Shown here: positions 2,360-23,821 of the stretch, piece by piece | Numbering within the stretch: the stretch's first letter is position 1 | Layout of the letters: the number at the start of each line of letters is the position of its first letter | Assembly (NCBI GenBank): GCA_958009085.1 | Contig: OY253671.1 | Span: forward strand, 186,001-250,000 | Length of the DNA: 64,000 bases | DNA from: Protoeuglena noctilucae | Taxonomy: Eukaryota | Direction: 5' to 3' | Made by a program: the position numbers and the translations under genes | The notes under the pieces: generated by a model | The model's input: only the letters and a program-made list of their open reading frames with translations | Told to the model about the DNA's origin: nothing | Databases searched by the model: none

Positions 2360-5300
2360 ATGCACGCTGTGGGGTCCTTGTCGCTGCTATCTGCACATAA
2401 TGCGTCGTCGTGCTTGTGTCGGCGACGCGTGCGTCCGGTTCCCCGCCCTCCCTCTGTGAGGAGCGGTGGGAAACAAGTGTGCCGTGCATCGCGCCGCCCC
2501 ACGCGCGACTCGACAGTTCGAGTGTCGTCTGAAGGTGCGGGTGGGACTCGACGATGCCGTGGAGGAGGTCACGGGGGCGCGGGCGAGCGGTTTGCATTGG
2601 CGCGCATTGACTGCCTCGCTTCGGCCCTCAAATGCTCCTTCCGTGTCCTCGAATTCAGGGAAGGTGCTCGTATCGGACAAATCGACGGAAGAGAGGTCGC
2701 TAGAGGGGGCGGAGAGGGGGCATGAGGGCGCACGGAGGGAAACGGGGGTGCAGGCACAGGAACCTCCGCGCCCGACGCGCGTGTCGGCCGACGTCGTCCG
2801 CGGCATCATGCGCGGCTTCCAATCGATGGTGAGAGTCTGCGCGACGGGGGGCATGCAGCCCTCGCTTGTTCGCGGCGCGTATGTGGCGGGCGCGTCCACA
2901 CACGGCTCCACCCGTCCTCCACGAACTCGACAGGCCTCAGTCGCCGGCGCCGGGTCTCACAGTCGTTTATAGTTATCCTCGCAGCGCGATGAGATGGATT
3001 TCTGGGTCCCAGAGGCGATGGTTACCGAGGGGCGGGTGCCTGTGGACCTGTCGGGCACGGTCTTCCGCAACGGGCCCGGTCTCTTTGAGTATGGCGACAA
3101 TCGGATCAACCAGATGTTCGACGGCGACGGTATGATCACGCGGCTGGTCTTCCGCGGCGGCCGCGTGCACTTCAAGAACCGGTACGTGCGCACGAACGAC
3201 TTTGTCGCGGAGCAGTCCGCGGGGCGCTTCCTGCGCAAGAGCGTCTTCTCCACGGGGAATCCGAGCGGAGGAGTTTTATTCAACCCCTTCGACTTCCACT
3301 TCAAGAACCCAGCCAACACGGCGGCGGTGGTGTGGGCCGGCCAGCTCCTCGCCCTGAACGAGGCCGGCCTGCCCGCCGTGCTCGATCCCCGGACCCTGGA
3401 GACGCTTCGCTGCGACGTCCGCTCCCTCGACCCGACCGACCACGCGCGCGCGGACATCCGGACGGACTACTTCCACGCGCACCACCGGGTGAGCCGCGGA
3501 TGCATGCAAAGATGATGCAGTTGCCTCCAGCCCCAAGGCGCTCCACAGGCCCAAGCCCATCTTTCAGACGGGAGGGCGACGCGCTAGCCAAAATGGTATG
3601 CCCATGTGGATTGACAGAGCTCGTTCCTTGTCACCGCGCCCCCAGGTCCTCTGGTCAGACGCGGGTTCGAAGCGCCTGGTGGGACTGGGGTCAAGCATGG
3701 CGGGCATCAACGGCCTCGAGGTCGAGTTCTACGAGTTCGGTCCCTCGGGCCACCTCCTGCACCGCAACAAGGTGCGAGGTGGCCGGGTGTCGTGCACGGG
3801 CGTGCGGCTGTATGCTTAGGAGCTTATCTGCGCACGAGTTTGTCGCCCCCCACAGTCTCGCGTACAACCATGGAGCTCCGGGTGCCCCCCTGCCATGCAC
3901 CTGCCACTTCCGCCACATATGAGCCGCTTTCGTCGTACTTCGTGCGCAGGAGTTCCTCCCTGGCGCCAACCTCGGCTTCTTCCACGATTTCGTGGTCACG
4001 GAGAACTATTATGTGCTCGTCCAGAACCCCACGGAGCTCGACATGCGCGCCTTGCTGACCGAGTATGTGGTGGGCAAGCGGAGCATGGCCGAGTGCATCG
4101 CTTTCCGAAAGGACAAGAAGGCGCGGCTGCACGTCATCCCGCGGCCCGGGGCGCACCCGGCCTGCCGCAGGCAGACGTTGGACCTGGAAGTGAGCGGCGT
4201 GAGGGCGGGAACCGTCATTATGATCGACTCGCATCGCTGGCGCGCGCTTGGTGCACGGCAACTCGCGCCCAGCGGCGCCCTCCGCGCTCGCTCGACGTCA
4301 CGAACAAACCCTCCCACGCAGACCTTCTTCGTCTTCCATTTCTTGAATGCTTTTGAGGCCCCAGGGGGTCCCTCGTCCGCACCGTCGCGCCTCGTTGTGG
4401 ACCTCATCCCTTTGCCGGAGATCAAGTTCACGTCTCACGAGGACGCCATCAGCGAGGCCTTCTACGCGAACGCGAGGAATCGATCCGAGGTGCACCGGGT
4501 GGTGGCGGACCTGGGGACGGGCGTGGCGCGGTCGGCGAGGGTCACCGATGCAGCGTGCGAGATGCCCACGGGTGAGGGAGGGCGCGGGAGACACGGTATG
4601 TAGTAGATGCTTGAAATCGCATGGTGTCATGTCATGTCATTGGCAGAGTCTTGGGTCACGGCACATGCCACATGTTACGGCCTCACTGCCGGCAGCGCCG
4701 CCACGCTCTATGCGTCACTCCGCACCCCCCCACGCTCGCCCGCAGTGGCCGGCGCCCGGGCAGGTCGGCCCCACTCGGTGGGATTCGCGCAGGCGTCTCG
4801 CGTCCGGGGCTCTCCGCACTTTGGGCCGTCTCAGGGGGTGTCGCGGTTCGCCTTCCCTGAGCCTCTCCGGGCACCCCTGCAGCCGCGGGTGGCGGAGGAC
4901 TTCTGGGACGCCGGCGAGGATCGAATCGTGACGGAGCCGCTTTTCGTGCCGCGAGACGGTGCCCAGTGGGACACCGAGGACGATGGGTACCTGGGTGAGG
5001 GCCGCGTACACTTGGGCAGTCATGCAGTACAGCACGGTGTGCATCCCTATGTTTCGGGGGGAGCGTGCAAGAGCCACTGTCATCGTCGTGGCTGCCTGTG
5101 AGGGATTCGAATTGTTTTCTGAAGGCCCATGGGGCGCTTGATTTGAGGGTCACATGTTACATGTGGAAGGCGCGTCGTACCCATGCGTGGCCCACGTGAT
5201 CAGTCGTCCTCCGCACCCCTGCAGTGGCCTCCATGTACAACTGGCGCAAGGATCGCACGGAGGTGGCCATCCTCGACGCCCGCCGCCCATCCGCGGGACC

Positions 5301-16375: not shown

Positions 16376-17831
16376 CTACTGCCCGTATTTGAAGGTGCAC
16401 CCCATCTTGTATGCAAGCTCGGGGACGACATGGTCGGCAAGGATGCATCCCATGCCTCCCCTGCAGCTAGCCCGAAAGGCACTGGCCGCCGTGCAGCTAT
16501 CCACGCGGATGACCCCTGCGCGCACATCGAGGTAGACGATGAAGGGGGCGTGGAGCAGCGCCCCGCAGCTGGGCGCTCATCAGCAAGGCGCAGTGCTGCT
16601 GCCCACCGGGTAGTCTCTGCAACACAAGCGCCGTCTCGTGTTCCCGGAACGACGCCACCTCGCGGCCGTGCAGGCGCTGGAAACTCTGACGAGGGCGGTA
16701 CAACCCTCCTGGCCCTCGGCAGCCCCCCAGGGCAGGCAGCCCCACGCAAGGCTGCGGATGGTACGAGGTGCTGGGCGACTCGGTGACTCGTAAAACGCGG
16801 AAAGGTCAGCGCTTGACACCCACGCTCTGCCAGCAAGCCAGGCCCCCTAAAGAGGGCATCGCACTTCACCCCACGCCAGTGCCCGTGTTCACCTTCCCTG
16901 GCTCCGCGTCCTGCCCAACAATCACGCAAAGCATCATCTCTTCTCTCGTGCCCGGGCGCTCCCAAAGCTCGCGGACCACCTCATCCGCCCAGAAAAGGGC
17001 ATCGGCTGGGCCGCCAGCCGCGCCGCGCCCCACGTGGGCCACCAGCAGGTCCCCCCGCTCGGAGCCCGCGAAGAGACCCAGCTCGCCCGCGGAATTCAGG
17101 AAGCGCCGGCCGCCGGAGAAGCCCAGCGCGGCCGCGGCGCGCGCGGCGAACTGGCCGGGGTCCGGCACGGCACGGCCCGACGGCGCGGCGCCGTCCCTGG
17201 GCGCCCCGGCCATGCACTCGTCCGCAGCCTCGAAGCCAGCCCGGCGGCCCGCGTCGCGCACGCGCGCATCCGTGCTGCAGAGCGCAGCGCGCAGTGACCG
17301 GAAAGCGCTGAAGCGCTTGCCCACGGGCTCCCACGGAGGGGCATCGTGCGCGGAGACGCCGGCCCCGTCGCGGGCGAACTCATCGCAGTACGTCAGGACC
17401 TGGGCCACCAACGATAGGTCGCCGACGCCCGCCTCCCGCACCGCCAGCAGGCCGCTGGTGCCTAGCCGCGCCGCAGCGTCTGCAAACCCGCGCGAAGGGT
17501 CGGGTTCTAGCGCTTGCAAACAATGTCAAGCCTTCATGATCCATCCAGATCGCATTTCCACGCGGAGTTCGTCACCCAGGTGCGGCGTCGGCGTCGCATC
17601 CAGAGAATTTGGCAGGACGCGCGCCCAGCCCTCCCCCGGCTCGAGGGCCTCGTTGATGTCCCCATCGACGGCCGCGATGGCTCCCTCTACGATCAAGATG
17701 AGACACTTAGGAGGCGGCTGCTGTTGCGCCGCCGCGAGGCTGTAGCTCGGGCTGGCGTCATGGCCGGTCCGGCACTCGAGGCAGTCGCAACGCGTCGAGG
17801 GACCGTACTCGCGCTTCCTCGGCCTAGGCAT
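16376..17831 (-). CDS. Conserved green-lineage protein of unknown function (resembles the Arabidopsis At5g11810-type family)
   Basis: Exons give CLILIVEG, GTSGLLAVR, KRFSAFRSLRAAL, LGFSGG, DLLVAHVG, RPRQSF. A last exon missing from the ORF track reads GVIRVD...ILADHVVPELAYKMGCTFKYGQ*, similar to the remembered family C-terminus EVAFKLWKAPKYGA. Confidence 0.7.
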
Positions 17832-18000
17832 ACGATGGTTGTGGCGAGGAACCAATATCGGCCAGAAGAAGCAGCAAATTGCATCCAAGGCACTCGTGCA
17901 ACGCCCATAAACGGATGGCGTGCCGCTGACACACTTTTCTCCTGCCTTTCAATAGCCAGCGGGGGCACGACGCCTTGCGACACGCGCGCAAATCCTCTCC

Positions 18001-20238
18001 TCACATCATGCGGACCTCGTACTCCCCCGCCGTGGTGATGTAGCGCACCCAGGGCAGCGCCTGGTAACCCGACCGCTCAATGACCTTGAGGTAGCGGACC
18101 TGCATCCCCGACACCGTGAAGTACGGGATCTCGTAGTTGACCTGGATGGGCCGCTTGGACTCGGCCACCTCCTCGCCCGACACGGTCGGCAGGCCGAACT
18201 TGACCCGCAGCAGCGCCTCGCGGCCCCCCGGCAGCGACTTGATCTTCCACATCAGCGCGCCCTGCTCCGGGTGGTACTCTGCGGGGCGAGCCGCGATAGC
18301 GGTTCCTTCCAGGACGCCCACGCGCGCATCCCGGACCCTTGCATGCCCCGCTCGCCGCACTGCCCCGTTGCGGACACCCCTGCATACGCACCCGAGTTGC
18401 CCGTGGACGCCTTGGACTCCGGGGTGGAGCAGTCGATGGGGAGGGGCACCGTGAGCGTGAGGTTGTGGGCCGTCGAGCGGGCCTTGAAGGCTGTCCGGGC
18501 GCGGATCATGTACTCGGTGCGCGAGCGGCCATGGCGCTCAATCTCGCACTCCACCTGGATCAGCGGCTTCACGCGGCCTGCGCGCCAAGAGTCACCGGGC
18601 TACGTCGACCCCGTCGGGACAAACCAGCTGGCCGCAGACCCTGCCCCACTGCAACCCTCTCGCGCGCCCTCACCGGTGATGCGGTACGTCATCAGGTCGA
18701 ACTGCCCGTCGGGCGGGATGAAGGAGATGGTGCGGTCCTTTTCAAAGTGGGCCAGGCGCACGCACTGGTGGAACTTGATGTCCTCCAACTCCACCGCCTT
18801 TTGCGCCGCGGCGCCCCGGCCTTGCGAGTCCAGGAGCACCTGCGGGGGCGAGGAGGGTGGCAGGCGTCGACGGGCGCACCCGGCACGGCGGCAGCCGGCC
18901 CGGTCACACCAGCGGGGACCGTGCATTCGGTCGCTCGCACGTGGCACGCTGTCTCGGCCAGTGCAGCCCCCGCCACCATTTGCCGGGCCCGGTCCCACTC
19001 GCCTTGTCGTTCAGGCCAAGCTTGCACTCGGGCATCCCTGACAGGAACGCCTTCATCTTGAGCGCCCCCAGCACCTCGCCCCGGATGAGCTGGCCCTGGT
19101 GGCTCATCAGCATGTTGACCTTCTCCACGACGTCCAAGAACACCTCGTTCTTCTTGTACCTGCGGGCGGGCGGCGCCGGGAGCCGTGAGGGCGACGCCCT
19201 TGCCCGCATGGTCAGCCCAGGCTCTCTGTGGCCGCTCGGTGCGAGACACACGGCACTTGATGCCATCAAGCGAGTGTCTCACTTGATGCCCTCGCTCCGC
19301 CAGCTGACGGCGTTCGTCACTGCCATGGGTGGCTTGACCATGCCCTCCAGCTTGTGCGCGTCCGTCTTGATGTACTCCTGCAGGATGGCCGCCTCCGTGA
19401 ACTGAGGGTACCCAAAGTCCATCACCTCGTCCAGCAGCTCGTAGACTGCGGGGCAGGGGGAGCAGAACCCTCTTCTCCTCCATGCCAGGGTTTGCTGGAG
19501 ACTTGGCGAACCTCCGCTGCCTCTCCAGATGCATCCTCTGGACACCCAGCACACGCGCAGGAAGCATTTGCTGCTCTAACAGCTCAGCGCTCACTGATGA
19601 CGAAGTTGTCGCGCAGGGATTCCTCCTCCAGCTCTCCGAAGTAGTTCTTAAACACGTCCACGAGCTGCGAGCGAGACCCAGGGCGCAGGCATGGCATGGA
19701 TGCGCATGAGTCGCGGTGCCCCCTGGGCCACAGCCTGGTGACAGGCGGACAGGGTGCGTACACCGCGCCAGCCGGGCCTACCAACTCCCTGCTGCTCAGG
19801 CAACGGTACCGACCGCACCGCACCCCACGGCGCGCACCTTGTGGAGGAAGGGCTGGAGAGACACGACGTTGGCGTTGGAGCTGGCTGACGCCACCACATA
19901 CAGGTTCGAGTACTGGATGTACACGAACGAGAACCCCTTGAAGAGCACCACGGGCGTCAGCTGGCCCTGCTCCTCGAGCTCGCCTGGGCACCAGGGGCGA
20001 GGCAGGGGTGCGTGAGATGGGGGCACGAGGGGTGCACACGCGAGGTGCGTAACCATGATCAACTGCGCACCAGAGCGGGTAAACACGTGCGCGGCCGCAA
20101 TCAGGGCATCGTGCCGGCTGCCTCACCCAGGTGGTGGACGAAGCGCTCGACGATGTGCGAGGGCACGTCCCCACGGTAGTCGCGGGACAGGATGACGCGC
20201 CCTGCCACATCGAGGAAGTAGATGGCCGAGGCGGGCAT
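18001..20238 (-). CDS. AP1M: AP-1 adaptor complex mu subunit
   Basis: [10 protein letters not shown]...[117 protein letters not shown]. Confidence 0.97.
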
Positions 20239-20347
20239 CGCTACGGAACTGCAGGAGACACGACGCGGGTGGCGGTGTGCAGGCGGGCGGCGAATGGCCT
20301 GGCGCTGGGCCGCAAGCGAGAGGGCCGACCCGGACGGCCAAGCACCT

Positions 20348-20871
20348 TCAAGCCTGGGCCGTGGGCCGCTTGGGGAGCTGGTCGACGTGCTTGACGATGT
20401 TCGAGAGCACGTTGGTGACGCCGCCCGGGGAGCCGTTGAGCGCAGCGAGCTGCGGGGGCCGGGTGCAGGAGTTGTTGCCGTTTGAGCCCCGCCGGCCAGG
20501 CTGGCGAGCCTGGCGGCCAGCCGGACAATCAAGGGCTAGCGGGGGAAAATGCGCGACATTTCCCGTCCGCAGGGGCGGCAACAGACGGCCGCGCGTCCCT
20601 CTCTGCCCCGCCCGCGCGGGGCGGGAGTTCACGGGCCATCCGCGGCATGCGCGCCCCGGCTGGCGCCCTGCCACCACTGGCAGCTCCGGAAACGCGTCCG
20701 TGCGGGCCTCCTGGCTGCCGGATGGGAAGCACGGGCGTCGCGGGCGCCCACCTGGAGCAGGGGCACCAGGAGGTGCTCGGGAACGTCCAGGCCGGCCAGG
20801 ATGCAGAGTTCGTGGAGGTCAGCCCTCAAGTTCTCGGATAATACAGTGAGGTTACGTTGCTGCGTGGCCAT
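20348..20871 (-). CDS. 73-aa MOZART-family microprotein (MZT2/GCP8-like); exons 20871-20752 and 20449-20348
   Basis: Spliced product MATQQRNLTVLSENLRADLHELCILAGLDVPEHLLVPLLQLAALNGSPGGVTNVLSNIVKHVDQLPKRPTAQA. The pattern VLS..L.EL...AG...LL.L..LN.SP..V...L fits the MZT2 three-helix core. Phase-0 GT-AG intron. Confidence 0.65.
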
Positions 20872-21230
20872 CATAGCCGGGGATCAGTGGAGCGGAGCTC
20901 GATCAGTCCGCGGAAGGGCCATCCGGGGACGAGAGCTGGATCTCCGCGGTTCCCTGGGCGATTCGCAAGCAAGAATACCCATCGGCACGCGAGGCTCTGG
21001 GGGAGGAAGCGCGGGGCCCTGCCAGTCAGCGAAACTTCAGCGTCCACGCCGAAAGTCCGTTGCATGTGGACCACAGCCGCGCTGTGCATTTCTCCTGTCA
21101 ACAGTTTGATTGGGAAGCTTGCAACTTGGCTACTTGCTGCAGGGAGGGGTCCACACACGACGCGCAACCCGCCATCAGCGTCCACCGTCGCGCTCGCTAG
21201 CGGCGTCCAGGCAGCTGGTGCTGAGAGGAG

Positions 21231-22747
21231 ATGGGGGATTTCGGCGGGATGGCTGGCGTGAGCCAGTTCGCTGGCGGCTTCATGCCGACCACGCAGGCCG
21301 CGGGCGGACCCTCTCCCGGCCAGCAGAGGTGATGTCCGATGCGCTCGCGTCCACGCGAAAGTTCTTTGCCTTCTTAGGGTTTCGTTGGCATGCTTCGCGG
21401 ATGCCGTCAGGCTCTGTGGACCCGGCAACGCTGCCTTGACAAGGGCACGCGAATTCGGATGGCTCGGAGCGCGCTCGATGGGGCGCAGGCGCCATATGCG
21501 CTCCCTTCCTCACCAGATGTTTCTCGGCCGCTTGGCGCGAGGCGCTTGCGGATGGGCTCCGCCCCCTGTGCCCTCGCCGGCCCGCCGCGCTGTGCATGCT
21601 GTGTGCGTCGCATTTCCCGTCCTCTGCCCCCGCGCGCGCAGGTCCGAGACGAGCAAGCAGTCCTTGCGCCCGCTGACGGTCAAGCAGCTCGCGGATGCGA
21701 ACGCGGCCTCGGGCGGGGCCGAGCTGCTGCTCGACGGTGAGCCTGTCGAGAACTTCACTCTGGTGGGGAAGATCAGGCGAGGGCAGGCCTGGCTGCCGCG
21801 GCACGCGTCAGCTTCGCTGCTTAGCTGCGCCGTGCTCTCGTTCGTCGCCGAACTCGGTCGCGCCTCGCGCAGGAGCACGCACCCGCTGCCCACGTACCTG
21901 GAAGTCAAGCTGGACGACGGCACGGGGGTGGCGGACGTGCGCCTGTGGCTCGACGAGGACGCGACGGCGTCTGCGGCGCAGGTCGCGGAGCTGCAGCCCG
22001 GCCGATACGTCCGCGTGTACGGCGCGTTCCGCAGCGTCGCAGACACCCCGAGCATTCAGGTCCGGGCCAGCGCGTGCCGTGTGGCGGTCTGCGCGCGGGA
22101 CGCGTGCCTCCGTGACACTCCGCACCTGCGCTGAACGCGCAGGGGTTCAAGGTCCGCCCGGTGACGGACTTCAACGAGGTGGTGTACCACCCACTGGACG
22201 TCATCTTCGCGCACCAGATGCTGCAGAAGAAGGCCCAAGGTGACGAGGCTGCCGGCTTGGGGACATTGTGAACACGGGGCGCACCCGGCGGCGGCAATGA
22301 CCCGGCCCCGCTGTCCCACTGTGCAGGCGTTCCCACGTCCATGACCGTGGGCCAGGGCGCGCCCGCGGGCAACTTCGGCGCGCCCGCGGCGGCTGGGTGG
22401 GGCGCACCGGCCGTCCACGCGGTGCAGACCCACGGGGGGAGCGGCATGAGCCCCGTGGCGGAGGCGTGCATGCGCGTTTTCAATGAGGACGGTGCGTGCG
22501 AGAGAGAGCGGGTGAAGCTCCCCGTTGTGCGCGTGCCTTCTCTTGGTCCCCGCCTCACGCTTATCGGCCAGCCTCGCCCGCAGTTGCTGCTCGGTCCGAC
22601 CGGGGCCTCCATGTGCACGAGCTCATGCGCAAGCTCAGCAACCGCTTCAGCGAGGGGCAGGTGAACGAGGCCCTCGACTTCCTGCTCCAGGACGCGCAGA
22701 TCTACTCGACAATCGACGACAGCCACTTCAAGTCCACGCTGTTCTGA
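21231..22747 (+). CDS. RPA2: Replication protein A 32 kDa subunit
   Basis: FAGGFMP, LRPLTVKQL, LDDGTG, YVRVYG, VRPVTDFNEVVYH; winged-helix C-terminus IYSTIDDSHFKST. Confidence 0.95.
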
Positions 22748-22830
22748 GCGGCGCACACGGGTGCCGCGTCTACTGCGGCCGGCAACCGTGGCCGTCGCGG
22801 GGCATGGCTAGCACGAGGGGAACGGGGCGA

Positions 22831-23821
22831 TTAGTGGGGGATAGCGTTGACGTTGACGGCGAGGATGGCGAAGCCCAGCGCGTGGCCCAGGGCGCCCCAC
22901 GCCATGACGTCCACCAGGTTGAAGCCAGCAGGGTCGTTGGTGGTCTGGAGGAAGGAGGCCTCGGCCGCGAGCCTGTCACCCGCCTCGAGGTGCGTCATGC
23001 CGTTCTGCTTCGGCAGACCCGCGGACGCGACCTGGGAGGGCGGTGGCAGGGAGGCAGGTTTCCGCACCGCGGGAGGGGAAAGCGCTGTGGCAGAGGGGCT
23101 GCAAGGCATGGGAGCCGAGCAGCCAGCGGCGGCTCTGGCCGGCCGAAACAGCATGCGCCGGGGCGCGGACTCACGCGGTCGCGCTGGTAGGGGAGGAAGA
23201 CGAAGCGGCCCAGGCCCAGCATCACAGCGTTGGCCCCCGAGATGACGAGCTGCGAGTCGGTGAAGAGCTCGGCCCGGGTCACCTGCGCTCAGAGCCACGC
23301 GTCCGCTGCGTCAGCGAGGGCACCGGGAAGGCGCAGGCGGCGCGAGGGGAGCGGGGCAAGGGGATGCAGGGCAGGATCCGGGCCCCGGGCGCCGCTGAGG
23401 GAGCCGGGGGGGCCCTCTCGCAGCCCGGTTTGTGCGATAGATCAAATAAGACTCATCGCGTCGCAACTCCCGTCGTCCGGTAACGAGCACGAGGAGAACG
23501 CCGCGGGCGGGAGGTTGCCTCGTATCTCAGCCCTCGCCCGCCGGCATGCCGCGATTCGGCGCCGCGATCCCACCGCGACGAGCAGATTAGCTACCGAAAA
23601 GCGCGTGGTCCCCGGCGCAAGACACCCAGGCTCGCCCGGGACCTTTTCTCCAGTGCGCTGGACCGGGGCGCCGCTCCTGGGCGACAGCGGCCCCGGCACA
23701 GCTGTCGCCGCCAGCTCTAGTGCAGATTCACCTGGCGCGAGCCGCGCTGGCCAACGGCCTGCACGGACTTGGCCACCCGCTGCTGGAGCGGGGTCCGCTG
23801 AACGAGCATGGAGGCCTGCAT
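22831..23821 (-). CDS. PSAG: Photosystem I subunit G; exons 23821-23732, 23282-23175, 23031-22831
   Basis: Transit peptide [15 protein letters not shown]...; [51 protein letters not shown]. Confidence 0.95.

Follow-up and report, generated by a model that had tools for sequence, protein, structure and literature searches.

A MOZART2-like microprotein and the AP-1 mu adaptin share a spliced transcript path in Protoeuglena noctilucae: a well-supported candidate bicistron

How can an alga make an essential vesicle adaptin whose start codon, after splicing, lies only 12 nucleotides (nt) behind the stop codon of another gene? The question is raised by a locus of Protoeuglena noctilucae within a window of 64,000 nt, the whole stretch of DNA analysed here (assembly GCA_958009085.1, contig OY253671.1, positions 186,001 to 250,000; positions below are those of the window). 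A short open reading frame (ORF1) resembling the gamma-tubulin-complex microprotein MOZART2 (MZT2) is followed directly by AP1M, the gene for the mu subunit of the AP-1 adaptor. A preliminary description of the locus, made from its sequence, had proposed that both proteins are translated from one mRNA by leaky scanning or reinitiation. Our analysis of RNA contigs, protein profiles and AP1M loci of other algae identifies MZT2-AP1M as a well-supported bicistronic candidate, and as a new and ancient entry among algal bicistrons.

Fourteen sequencing runs were listed for the alga, six of them recorded as RNA; RNA contigs (Logan) from four, X1, X2 and X4 (study P1) and X5 (study P2), were compared with the locus. 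The host genome assembly comprises 26.3 Mb in 27 contigs, and the AP1M matches together with a neighbouring PsaG/K gene mark its owner as a green alga. The predicted junction 20346->20248, at which an intron between the two ORFs is removed, was found in contigs of all four runs (joint 20248|20346, with 104 letters on the shorter side), as were the joints 20449|20752, which completes ORF1, and 19982|20126, within AP1M. In run X2, a single contig of 1,619 nt extends from 20960 to 17983 and contains all ten exons and both ORFs. Contigs of runs X1 and X4 reach from about 20960 to 18840, and a 385 nt contig of run X5 spans ORF1 exon 1 to AP1M exon 2. The bins that include the ORF1 intron and the spacer intron have a summed depth equal to exon cover alone, with no intron cover, so the contigs represent spliced RNA. 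On the leader side, the contigs of the four runs end at 20966, 20960, 20952 and 20948, all upstream of ORF1. Given this shared spliced path at contig level in all four runs, ORF1 and AP1M are very probably joined on one mRNA, as the preliminary description had suggested. The 74 amino acid (aa) spliced product of ORF1 was recorded from JGI/Logan contigs (P0001). One odd joint, 19159|19344, appeared in run X4 at a depth of 4.4 and is probably another organism's.

The distances given in the preliminary description were all correct, from the sequence and from the four runs: the ORF1 TGA (20348) and the AP1M ATG (20238) lie 109 nt apart on the DNA, 97 nt of this is intron, and splicing leaves 12 nt, made up of 2 nt from the ORF1 exon and 10 nt from the AP1M exon. 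The ORF1 start proposed there, at 20871, is indeed an ATG, but it is the second of a tandem pair whose first member is at 20874. It had also been argued that the spacer leaves no space for a poly(A) signal plus promoter. Neither TGTAA, the polyadenylation signal of chlorophytes, nor AATAAA occurs in the spacer, but neither follows AP1M either, and TGTAA is absent from the minus strand throughout 17000-23000, including the 3' end of AP1M; its absence from the spacer therefore does not discriminate.

The identity of ORF1 was established through its homologues rather than by direct search. P0001 matched no Pfam family, nor did the single ORF1 exons; phmmer found no relative besides P0001 itself among 1.84 billion representative proteins, and no relative was found among PDB sequences. 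Of seven ORF1s tested at the same position in other algae, however, six exceeded the MOZART2 cut-off, at 28-44 bits. P0001 shares 19-28% identity with its syntenic homologues. Against an algal MZT2 profile built without it, P0001 scored 20.7 bits, compared with 17.0 bits for the best of 2,001 shuffled or reversed controls, and when the window was compared in six frames with such a profile, coding exon 1 of ORF1 gave the best match. A profile of P0001 and its syntenic homologues (A1) matched vertebrate MZT2A/B with E values of 7e-12 to 5e-10, whereas its matches to MZT1 were no better than 0.013. In the alignment of ORF1 homologues, 72 of the 80 database matches carry PF12926. The predicted structure of P0001 consists of three helices at moderate confidence (predicted local distance difference test score, pLDDT, 66-67). 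Its top three matches among 48,161 folds were Mozart1 chains, with Z scores of 5.8, 4.9 and 4.8, all below the caution level of Z 8 (the best with a root-mean-square deviation of 3.0 over 60 aligned residues); Mzt2 itself (7fad_B) reached Z 3.4. Foldseek matches were weak (E 6-8), and Atlas returned MOZART1/2 at 0.85-0.86, a lead only. Canonical MZT1 is a separate gene of the host genome (contig C8 near 932,200; 57.5 bits). The syntenic homologues, together with the profile and fold searches, thus support both the MZT2-like identity proposed earlier and the view of ORF1 as a fast-evolving MZT2 orthologue that stays under the Pfam threshold on its own. The AP1M of this alga is also on a long branch (0.42, weak support) of the AP1M tree, so the lineage as a whole appears to evolve fast. 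A PF12926 search of the host genome gave no candidate, but its controls were silent as well, which makes it uninformative on a second MZT2 copy.

Vertebrate MZT2A/B (MOZART2, GCP8; PF12926; PDB 7FAD, 6X0V, 9G3Y) share with the ORF1 family the profile match and the three helices, predicted in the case of ORF1. They differ in length, at 155-158 aa, whereas the algal ORF1s have 59-97 aa, consist of the core only, are free of Met and are encoded in the leader of AP1M. In the gamma-tubulin ring of animals, MZT2 pairs with the N-terminus of GCP2, and the algal protein would likewise bind GCP2. The host genome contains two GCP genes; one of them (contig C3), which by eye we take to be GCP2, has its N-terminus split over several exons, one without a GCP match. 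The GCP gene at locus L083 probably has a further GC donor, near position 3575. Two introns interrupt the MZT1 gene, and a TGTAA follows its stop at a distance of about 95 nt; a small gene that we take to be YidD-like, one exon of which had no Pfam match, begins about 360 nt downstream in the same orientation.

The second gene is unambiguous. The spliced AP1M frame encodes 425 aa with a PF00928 match and is of the full-length longin plus mu-homology type, closest to mu1. Its best named matches are Mu1-adaptin or AP-1 mu proteins, at 62-69% over the full length. A Trebouxia protein (P0012) aligns from residue 1 with 69% identity over residues 1-424, and the alignment with green-algal mu1 adaptins places the start at the canonical Met. 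No other close AP-1 mu was found in the host genome, where two further mu genes show 29-46% identity (these counts are lower bounds). Because the sole close AP-1 mu gene found is at this locus, the host AP-1 complex depends on the MZT2-AP1M transcript, and because the second gene is essential and single-copy, its translation cannot be noise.

Synteny in other algae, the next prediction of the preliminary description, was present at 12 of 80 AP1M metagenome loci (10 distinct), which had been kept from at least 450 confirmed stretches. At each of the 12, MZT2 lies just upstream of AP1M on the same strand; nine loci had first given weak ORF1 matches, and the profile raised the number to 12. At least 250 nt of upstream DNA was available for 48 loci, so that MZT2 was found in 12 of 48, although divergent or intron-split copies could be missed. 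By tree grouping, the 36 others comprise four chlorophycean loci, nine of one trebouxiophyte-like subclade (several of them duplicates), two from land plants and 21 that are non-green or other; none of the four Chlorophyceae or two land-plant loci examined showed MZT2 upstream of AP1M. In the AP1M tree (FastTree, 113 rows, 423 columns, with 11 duplicates and L029 left out; the backbone is weakly supported), carriers occupy at least six places. L003/L004 group with Pycnococcus, and L024 is Prasinococcus-like, its ORF1 sharing 72% identity with a protein that bears the label Prasinococcus capsulatus cf. Three further places are held by L053/L067, L059/L042 and L010/L031, while L050/L052 and L076 belong to the group that includes Trebouxia and Coccomyxa. 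Both ORFs are present on the spliced contig L024, whose close relative L020 has introns in both genes (the last MZT2 exon of L020 was recognized by eye only). Many of the 80 MZT2 homologues are on contigs of 1.6-2.1 kb, the size of a two-ORF mRNA, which is not evidence by itself. Viral contigs gave no match to MZT2.

Prasinophyte lineages branch earlier than the split between Chlamydomonas and Auxenochlorella, so the pair probably predates that split and was later lost in some lineages. The split has been dated to ~700 million years ago (PMC11291117), and the MZT2-AP1M pair is thus probably older than this. Two side observations concern related sequences. Three loci (L038, L045 and L019) have about 450 nt free of ATG before the AP1M start and no MZT2-like frame; these stretches may be long ATG-free leaders or, in the two chlorophycean loci, the remnant of a lost ORF. 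A large MZT2 group of Mamiellophyceae type, close to named Mantoniella proteins (P0141-P0166 and P0178 in alignment A2), has a Met near the C-terminus.

An indication of how AP1M is reached comes from the distribution of ATG triplets. Between the MZT2 start and the AP1M start, the 11 carriers (window included) contain a single ATG over 3,329 nt, whereas the respective AP1M frames would predict 43; the remaining five permutations of A, T and G occur 21-44 times each in the same sequence. In the ten carriers with a full ORF, observed and expected numbers are 0 and 6.5 for out-of-frame ATGs, 1 and 18 for in-frame Met, and 0 and 7.5 for the spacer, and the MZT2 frame is free of ATG in nine of them. 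Vertebrate MZT2 has three Met within the same 45-residue core. At the window locus, the 231 spliced nt between the two starts contain no ATG, and the three ATGs of the corresponding genomic DNA all lie within the 302 nt intron of ORF1. For the window and L059 the count begins at the later of two in-frame ATGs. Separate promoters or a restart behind the stop codon need no ATG-free frame, and the clearing thus favours scanning through ORF1; of the two routes offered by the preliminary description, leaky scanning is strengthened and reinitiation after the MZT2 stop is less favoured. The start contexts of the family follow the published direction, with a purine at -3 in 11 of 11 AP1M starts and seven of ten MZT2 starts.

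Spacer lengths in the 11 carriers are 12, 26, 36, 66, 73, 88, 92, 93, 106, 165 and 179 nt, where the value of 93 nt applies after removal of a candidate intron. The remainder after division by three is 0, 1 and 2 in five, three and three carriers, respectively, and the MZT2 stop may be TGA, TAG or TAA. Readthrough is disfavoured because spacers occur in all three frames. The candidate intron, a 152 nt GT-AG stretch (L050/L052:2523-2674), holds all four spacer ATGs, and a spacer intron may therefore recur in a trebouxiophyte-like alga.

We consider it likely that a single promoter yields one two-ORF mRNA on which AP1M is reached by scanning through or past the MZT2 start. One promoter near 20970 would give one pre-mRNA, from which splicing would remove the ORF1 intron, the 97 nt spacer intron and the seven AP1M introns to leave an mRNA of ~1.65 kb. 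The mature mRNA would encode two separate proteins, MZT2 (74 aa, three predicted helices) and AP-1 mu (425 aa). A cap-loaded 40S subunit would initiate at MZT2 or, across the algae most likely by leaky scanning, bypass this start and travel on through the ATG-free MZT2 frame and the spacer as far as AP1M. Eight exon junctions lie behind the MZT2 stop; translation of AP1M would clear them and may shield the mRNA from nonsense-mediated decay (NMD).

The window locus is a poorer fit to simple leaky scanning than the family is, given the A at -3 and G at +4 of its second MZT2 ATG. Within the leader, which folds no better than shuffled sequences (z -1.1), is a 12-codon upstream ORF (uORF) whose stop ends 9 nt ahead of the first MZT2 ATG and, after splicing, 246 nt ahead of the AP1M ATG. 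Were this uORF translated, a 40S subunit without fresh initiator tRNA could slide over both MZT2 ATGs and restart at AP1M. On our analysis, such a bypass is a serious candidate for the route at this locus, although we would stop short of calling it probable; a plain leak past all three ATGs is plausible to a lesser degree, and a restart after the MZT2 stop is unlikely here. A related case is open reading frames 35-36 of Kaposi's sarcoma-associated herpesvirus, where an 11-codon uORF allows ribosomes to bypass a start that lies 16 nt beyond it, but not one 246 nt away (Kronstad 2013, PMC3561293). The viral and algal arrangements share an 11-12-codon uORF beside the start of the first gene and a next start ~250 nt downstream; in the virus, the overlapping or flanking position of the uORF relative to the start is conserved, whereas the place of the window uORF is not conserved and its use is putative.

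Several observations weigh against the proposed account. A contig path defines no single molecule, start or end, and two overlapping transcripts could yield the same path. P0001 itself missed the PF12926 gathering score of 23.3 bits. The ATG deficit is weak for the window alone (out-of-frame expectation 0.26), and P values for the depletion are overstated because the carriers are related; moreover, the L050 candidate intron with its four ATGs was taken out without RNA proof, and 31 of 57 MZT2 homologues without an assigned genomic context carry an internal Met. At the window locus, the strong second MZT2 ATG (A-3, G+4) and the AP1M ATG (G-3, C+4) reverse the published context pattern, and ORF1 does not show the weaker start context that is a statistical trend among published algal bicistrons, as judged with no consensus built for the host alga. 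A short uORF near the MZT2 start occurs in just five of ten carriers, with no fixed place and about as often as in unselected sequence, for which reason uORFs are at most an optional helper across carriers. Thirteen green-algal loci with sufficient upstream DNA lack MZT2, so the link is dispensable. Finally, we know of no common function of MZT2 and AP-1 mu.

Four other explanations were weighed against these data. The one closest to our own keeps the bicistronic mRNA and attributes AP1M to ribosomes that complete MZT2 and then initiate again 12 nt later. The shortest spacers (12 nt in the window, 26 nt in L076 and 36 nt in L053), the lack of ATG in all spacers and the strong tandem ATG of the window MZT2 would suit termination-reinitiation, yet it does not require the ATG-free MZT2 frame seen in nine of ten carriers, and spacers extend to 165-179 nt. 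Reinitiation dropped sharply when a uORF was extended from 11 to 64 codons (PMC3561293), and algal reporter data point in the opposite direction (PMC11892635); we regard this route as improbable for the family. It is more improbable still that two overlapping monocistronic units, with an AP1M start inside MZT2 exon 2 and an MZT2 mRNA ending in AP1M, were merged by the assembler. Starts, ends and single molecules are beyond what Logan contigs resolve, and Arabidopsis read-through loci with intergenic splicing mostly have a separate second-gene start and an ORF that is rarely translated from the read-through RNA (PMC9768141). Neither intron has cover, however, no end at 20248 or in exon 2 is among the loose ends listed, and separate units leave the ATG clearing across the MZT2 frame and the long retention of the pair unexplained.

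A fusion protein, formed by TGA readthrough or alternative splicing, is hardly credible. In its favour, the uORF, MZT2 and AP1M of the window share a common frame, each with a TGA stop, and an NCBI model of Pycnococcus (GHP11311.1, P0033, 490 aa) joins MOZART2 and PF00928 matches in one protein. The mixed spacer frames and the three different stops of the carriers argue against a fusion. The Pycnococcus-like contigs L003/L004 retain the 116 nt that GHP11311.1 splices out as a predicted intron, a separate 432 aa Pycnococcus AP1M is found on 23 contigs compared with one for the fusion, the MZT2 profile matches just one of 95 long proteins examined, and no stop-skipping joint is among those listed. 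We read GHP11311.1 as a gene-model error, with a minor splice form possible. Another Pycnococcus model, XRB06261.1 (P0203), joins AP1M to a starch-synthase domain behind it, and both fusions are probably gene-model errors in a compact genome. Lastly, ORF1 of this alga could be a decaying relic or a purely regulatory uORF whose peptide no longer works as MZT2. Such decay would explain the lack of Pfam, phmmer and PDB-sequence relatives, the 19-28% identity and the pLDDT of 66-67; against it stand an open frame maintained across a spliced intron, a score to an independent profile above that of all 2,001 controls, three helices whose top three fold matches are Mozart chains, the likewise long AP1M branch of a fast lineage and the existence of MZT1 as a separate gene. 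We give this explanation very little credence and retain ORF1 as an MZT2 orthologue. Two further candidates were rejected. TGA recoding is contradicted by the normal TGA end of AP1M itself and by the use of all three stops among carriers, and for spliced-leader trans-splicing no loose end at the acceptor was found among those listed, in contigs that drop rare forms.

The arrangement resembles known green-algal bicistrons (Gallaher 2021, PMC7896298; Duenas 2024/2025, PMC11291117 = PMC11892635), for which leaky scanning has been demonstrated in vivo, in tests in Auxenochlorella (PMC11291117). The lengths of ORF1 (225 nt), AP1M (1,278 nt) and the 12 nt spacer are within the published ranges, where medians are 291-357 nt for the first ORF and 1,113-1,185 nt for the second. 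Also in common are a short leader (~90 nt here), a short spacer, an ATG-poor path to the second ORF, unrelated functions, and an order that is kept between lineages in the absence of a kept frame. The window locus differs in the strong tandem ATG of ORF1, the uORF in front and a spacer that is mostly intron. Its carriers are prasinophyte-grade and trebouxiophyte-like, lineages outside the long-read surveys as described in these reports. As far as the annotated bicistron lists of PMC7896298 and PMC11291117 were searched, none of their entries mentions MOZART, MZT, adaptin, clathrin or mu-homology; ORF1 might be concealed in rows that lack annotation, whereas this is hardly likely for AP1M. The three Auxenochlorella pairs with comparable lengths proved to be the DPM3, CYP37-like and prenyltransferase loci. 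No paper on the MZT2-AP1M pair or on algal MZT2 was found among the open-licence papers listed.

A close parallel is CDC26-TTM3 of plants and green algae (PMC11892635, PMC9768141), in which a tiny subunit of a cell-division complex likewise precedes an unrelated housekeeping gene and has been retained for a very long time; translation of its second ORF has been proposed to counter NMD (PMC11892635). CDC26-TTM3 is kept in land plants, unlike MZT2 at the two land-plant AP1M loci examined. Arabidopsis read-through RNAs (Kurihara 2022, PMC9768141) resemble the window in that an intergenic intron is spliced out and no room for termination is left. Those RNAs are minor, are targeted by NMD and seldom have their second ORF translated; at the window locus, by contrast, the second ORF encodes the only AP-1 mu, and the pairing has been conserved.

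With this pair, the catalogue of algal bicistrons gains a very old locus whose second gene is essential and single-copy. It also places MZT2 outside animals, against two published statements, one that the protein is deuterostome-only (PMC6281477) and one that it is confined to one supergroup (10.1101/2024.01.08.573270), and so alters the view of the ancestral gamma-tubulin ring. Arabidopsis is credited with MZT2 in one table that gives no detail (PMC10454807), and some algal proteins are already labelled MOZART2 automatically by Pfam and JGI, which limits the novelty. Microproteins of this kind get lost from annotation, either omitted as leader sequence or, as with GHP11311.1, joined to the gene that follows. 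ATG clearing in a conserved ORF offers a cheap screen for further bicistrons that needs only sequence, and the combination of a strong start with a uORF would provide a natural case of a second route to ORF2 in algae. It is tempting to speculate that the bicistron dates from the green-plant root and hid MZT2 from annotation, that the MZT2-GCP2 module is old among eukaryotes, that the link is functional, between microtubule nucleation and trans-Golgi clathrin traffic, and that the uORF acts as a stress or cell-cycle translational switch via the supply of initiator tRNA; as a joint proposal, we regard this as doubtful. The features of the locus and its immediate surroundings are given in Table 1.

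Table 1. Features of the MZT2-AP1M locus and its upstream neighbour in the window (UTR, untranslated region)
Feature	Position	Strand	Details and evidence
5' leader of the shared transcript	20875..20966	-	At least 92 nt; contig ends in four runs
uORF, 12 codons	20884..20922	-	ATG 20922 (-3 C, +4 G); within the transcribed leader; putative translation
MZT2-like ORF1, coding exon 1, 41 codons	20752..20874	-	Tandem ATG 20874/20871; contig joints
ORF1-internal intron, 302 nt, GT-AG	20450..20751	-	Joint in 4/4 runs
ORF1 exon 2, 33 codons plus 2 nt of spacer	20346..20449	-	TGA 20350-20348
Spacer intron between the ORFs, 97 nt, GT-AG	20249..20345	-	GT donor 20345, AG acceptor 20249; joint in 4/4 runs
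AP1M exon 1	20127..20248	-	10 nt of spacer, then ATG 20238 (-3 G, +4 C)
AP1M coding region, 425 aa, 8 exons, 7 introns	18001..20238	-	Contig joints, PF00928, Trebouxia alignment
AP1M intron with GC donor (GC-AG), 163 nt	19002-18840	-	Joint in 3/4 runs
3' UTR	17942..18000	-	At least 59 nt; contig end 17942 in run X1
Stretch with no contig pieces listed	20967..21093	.	~130 nt between the MZT2-AP1M unit and RPA2
RPA2 (RPA32)	21094..22747	+	ATG 21231; RPA_C PF08784 (E 2e-9), OB-fold match, contigs

Upstream, the MZT2-AP1M unit is arranged head to head with RPA2, whose contigs begin at 21094-21114. The short stretch between the two is probably a two-way promoter common to both units, and would couple a replication gene to a spindle gene. 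With three window exons as query, tblastn gave no RPA2 match in the 80 AP1M loci. On the other side, a further transcribed unit reaches 17849, ~90 nt from the AP1M 3' end, and its two long frames had no Pfam match. A PsaG/K gene also adjoins the locus.

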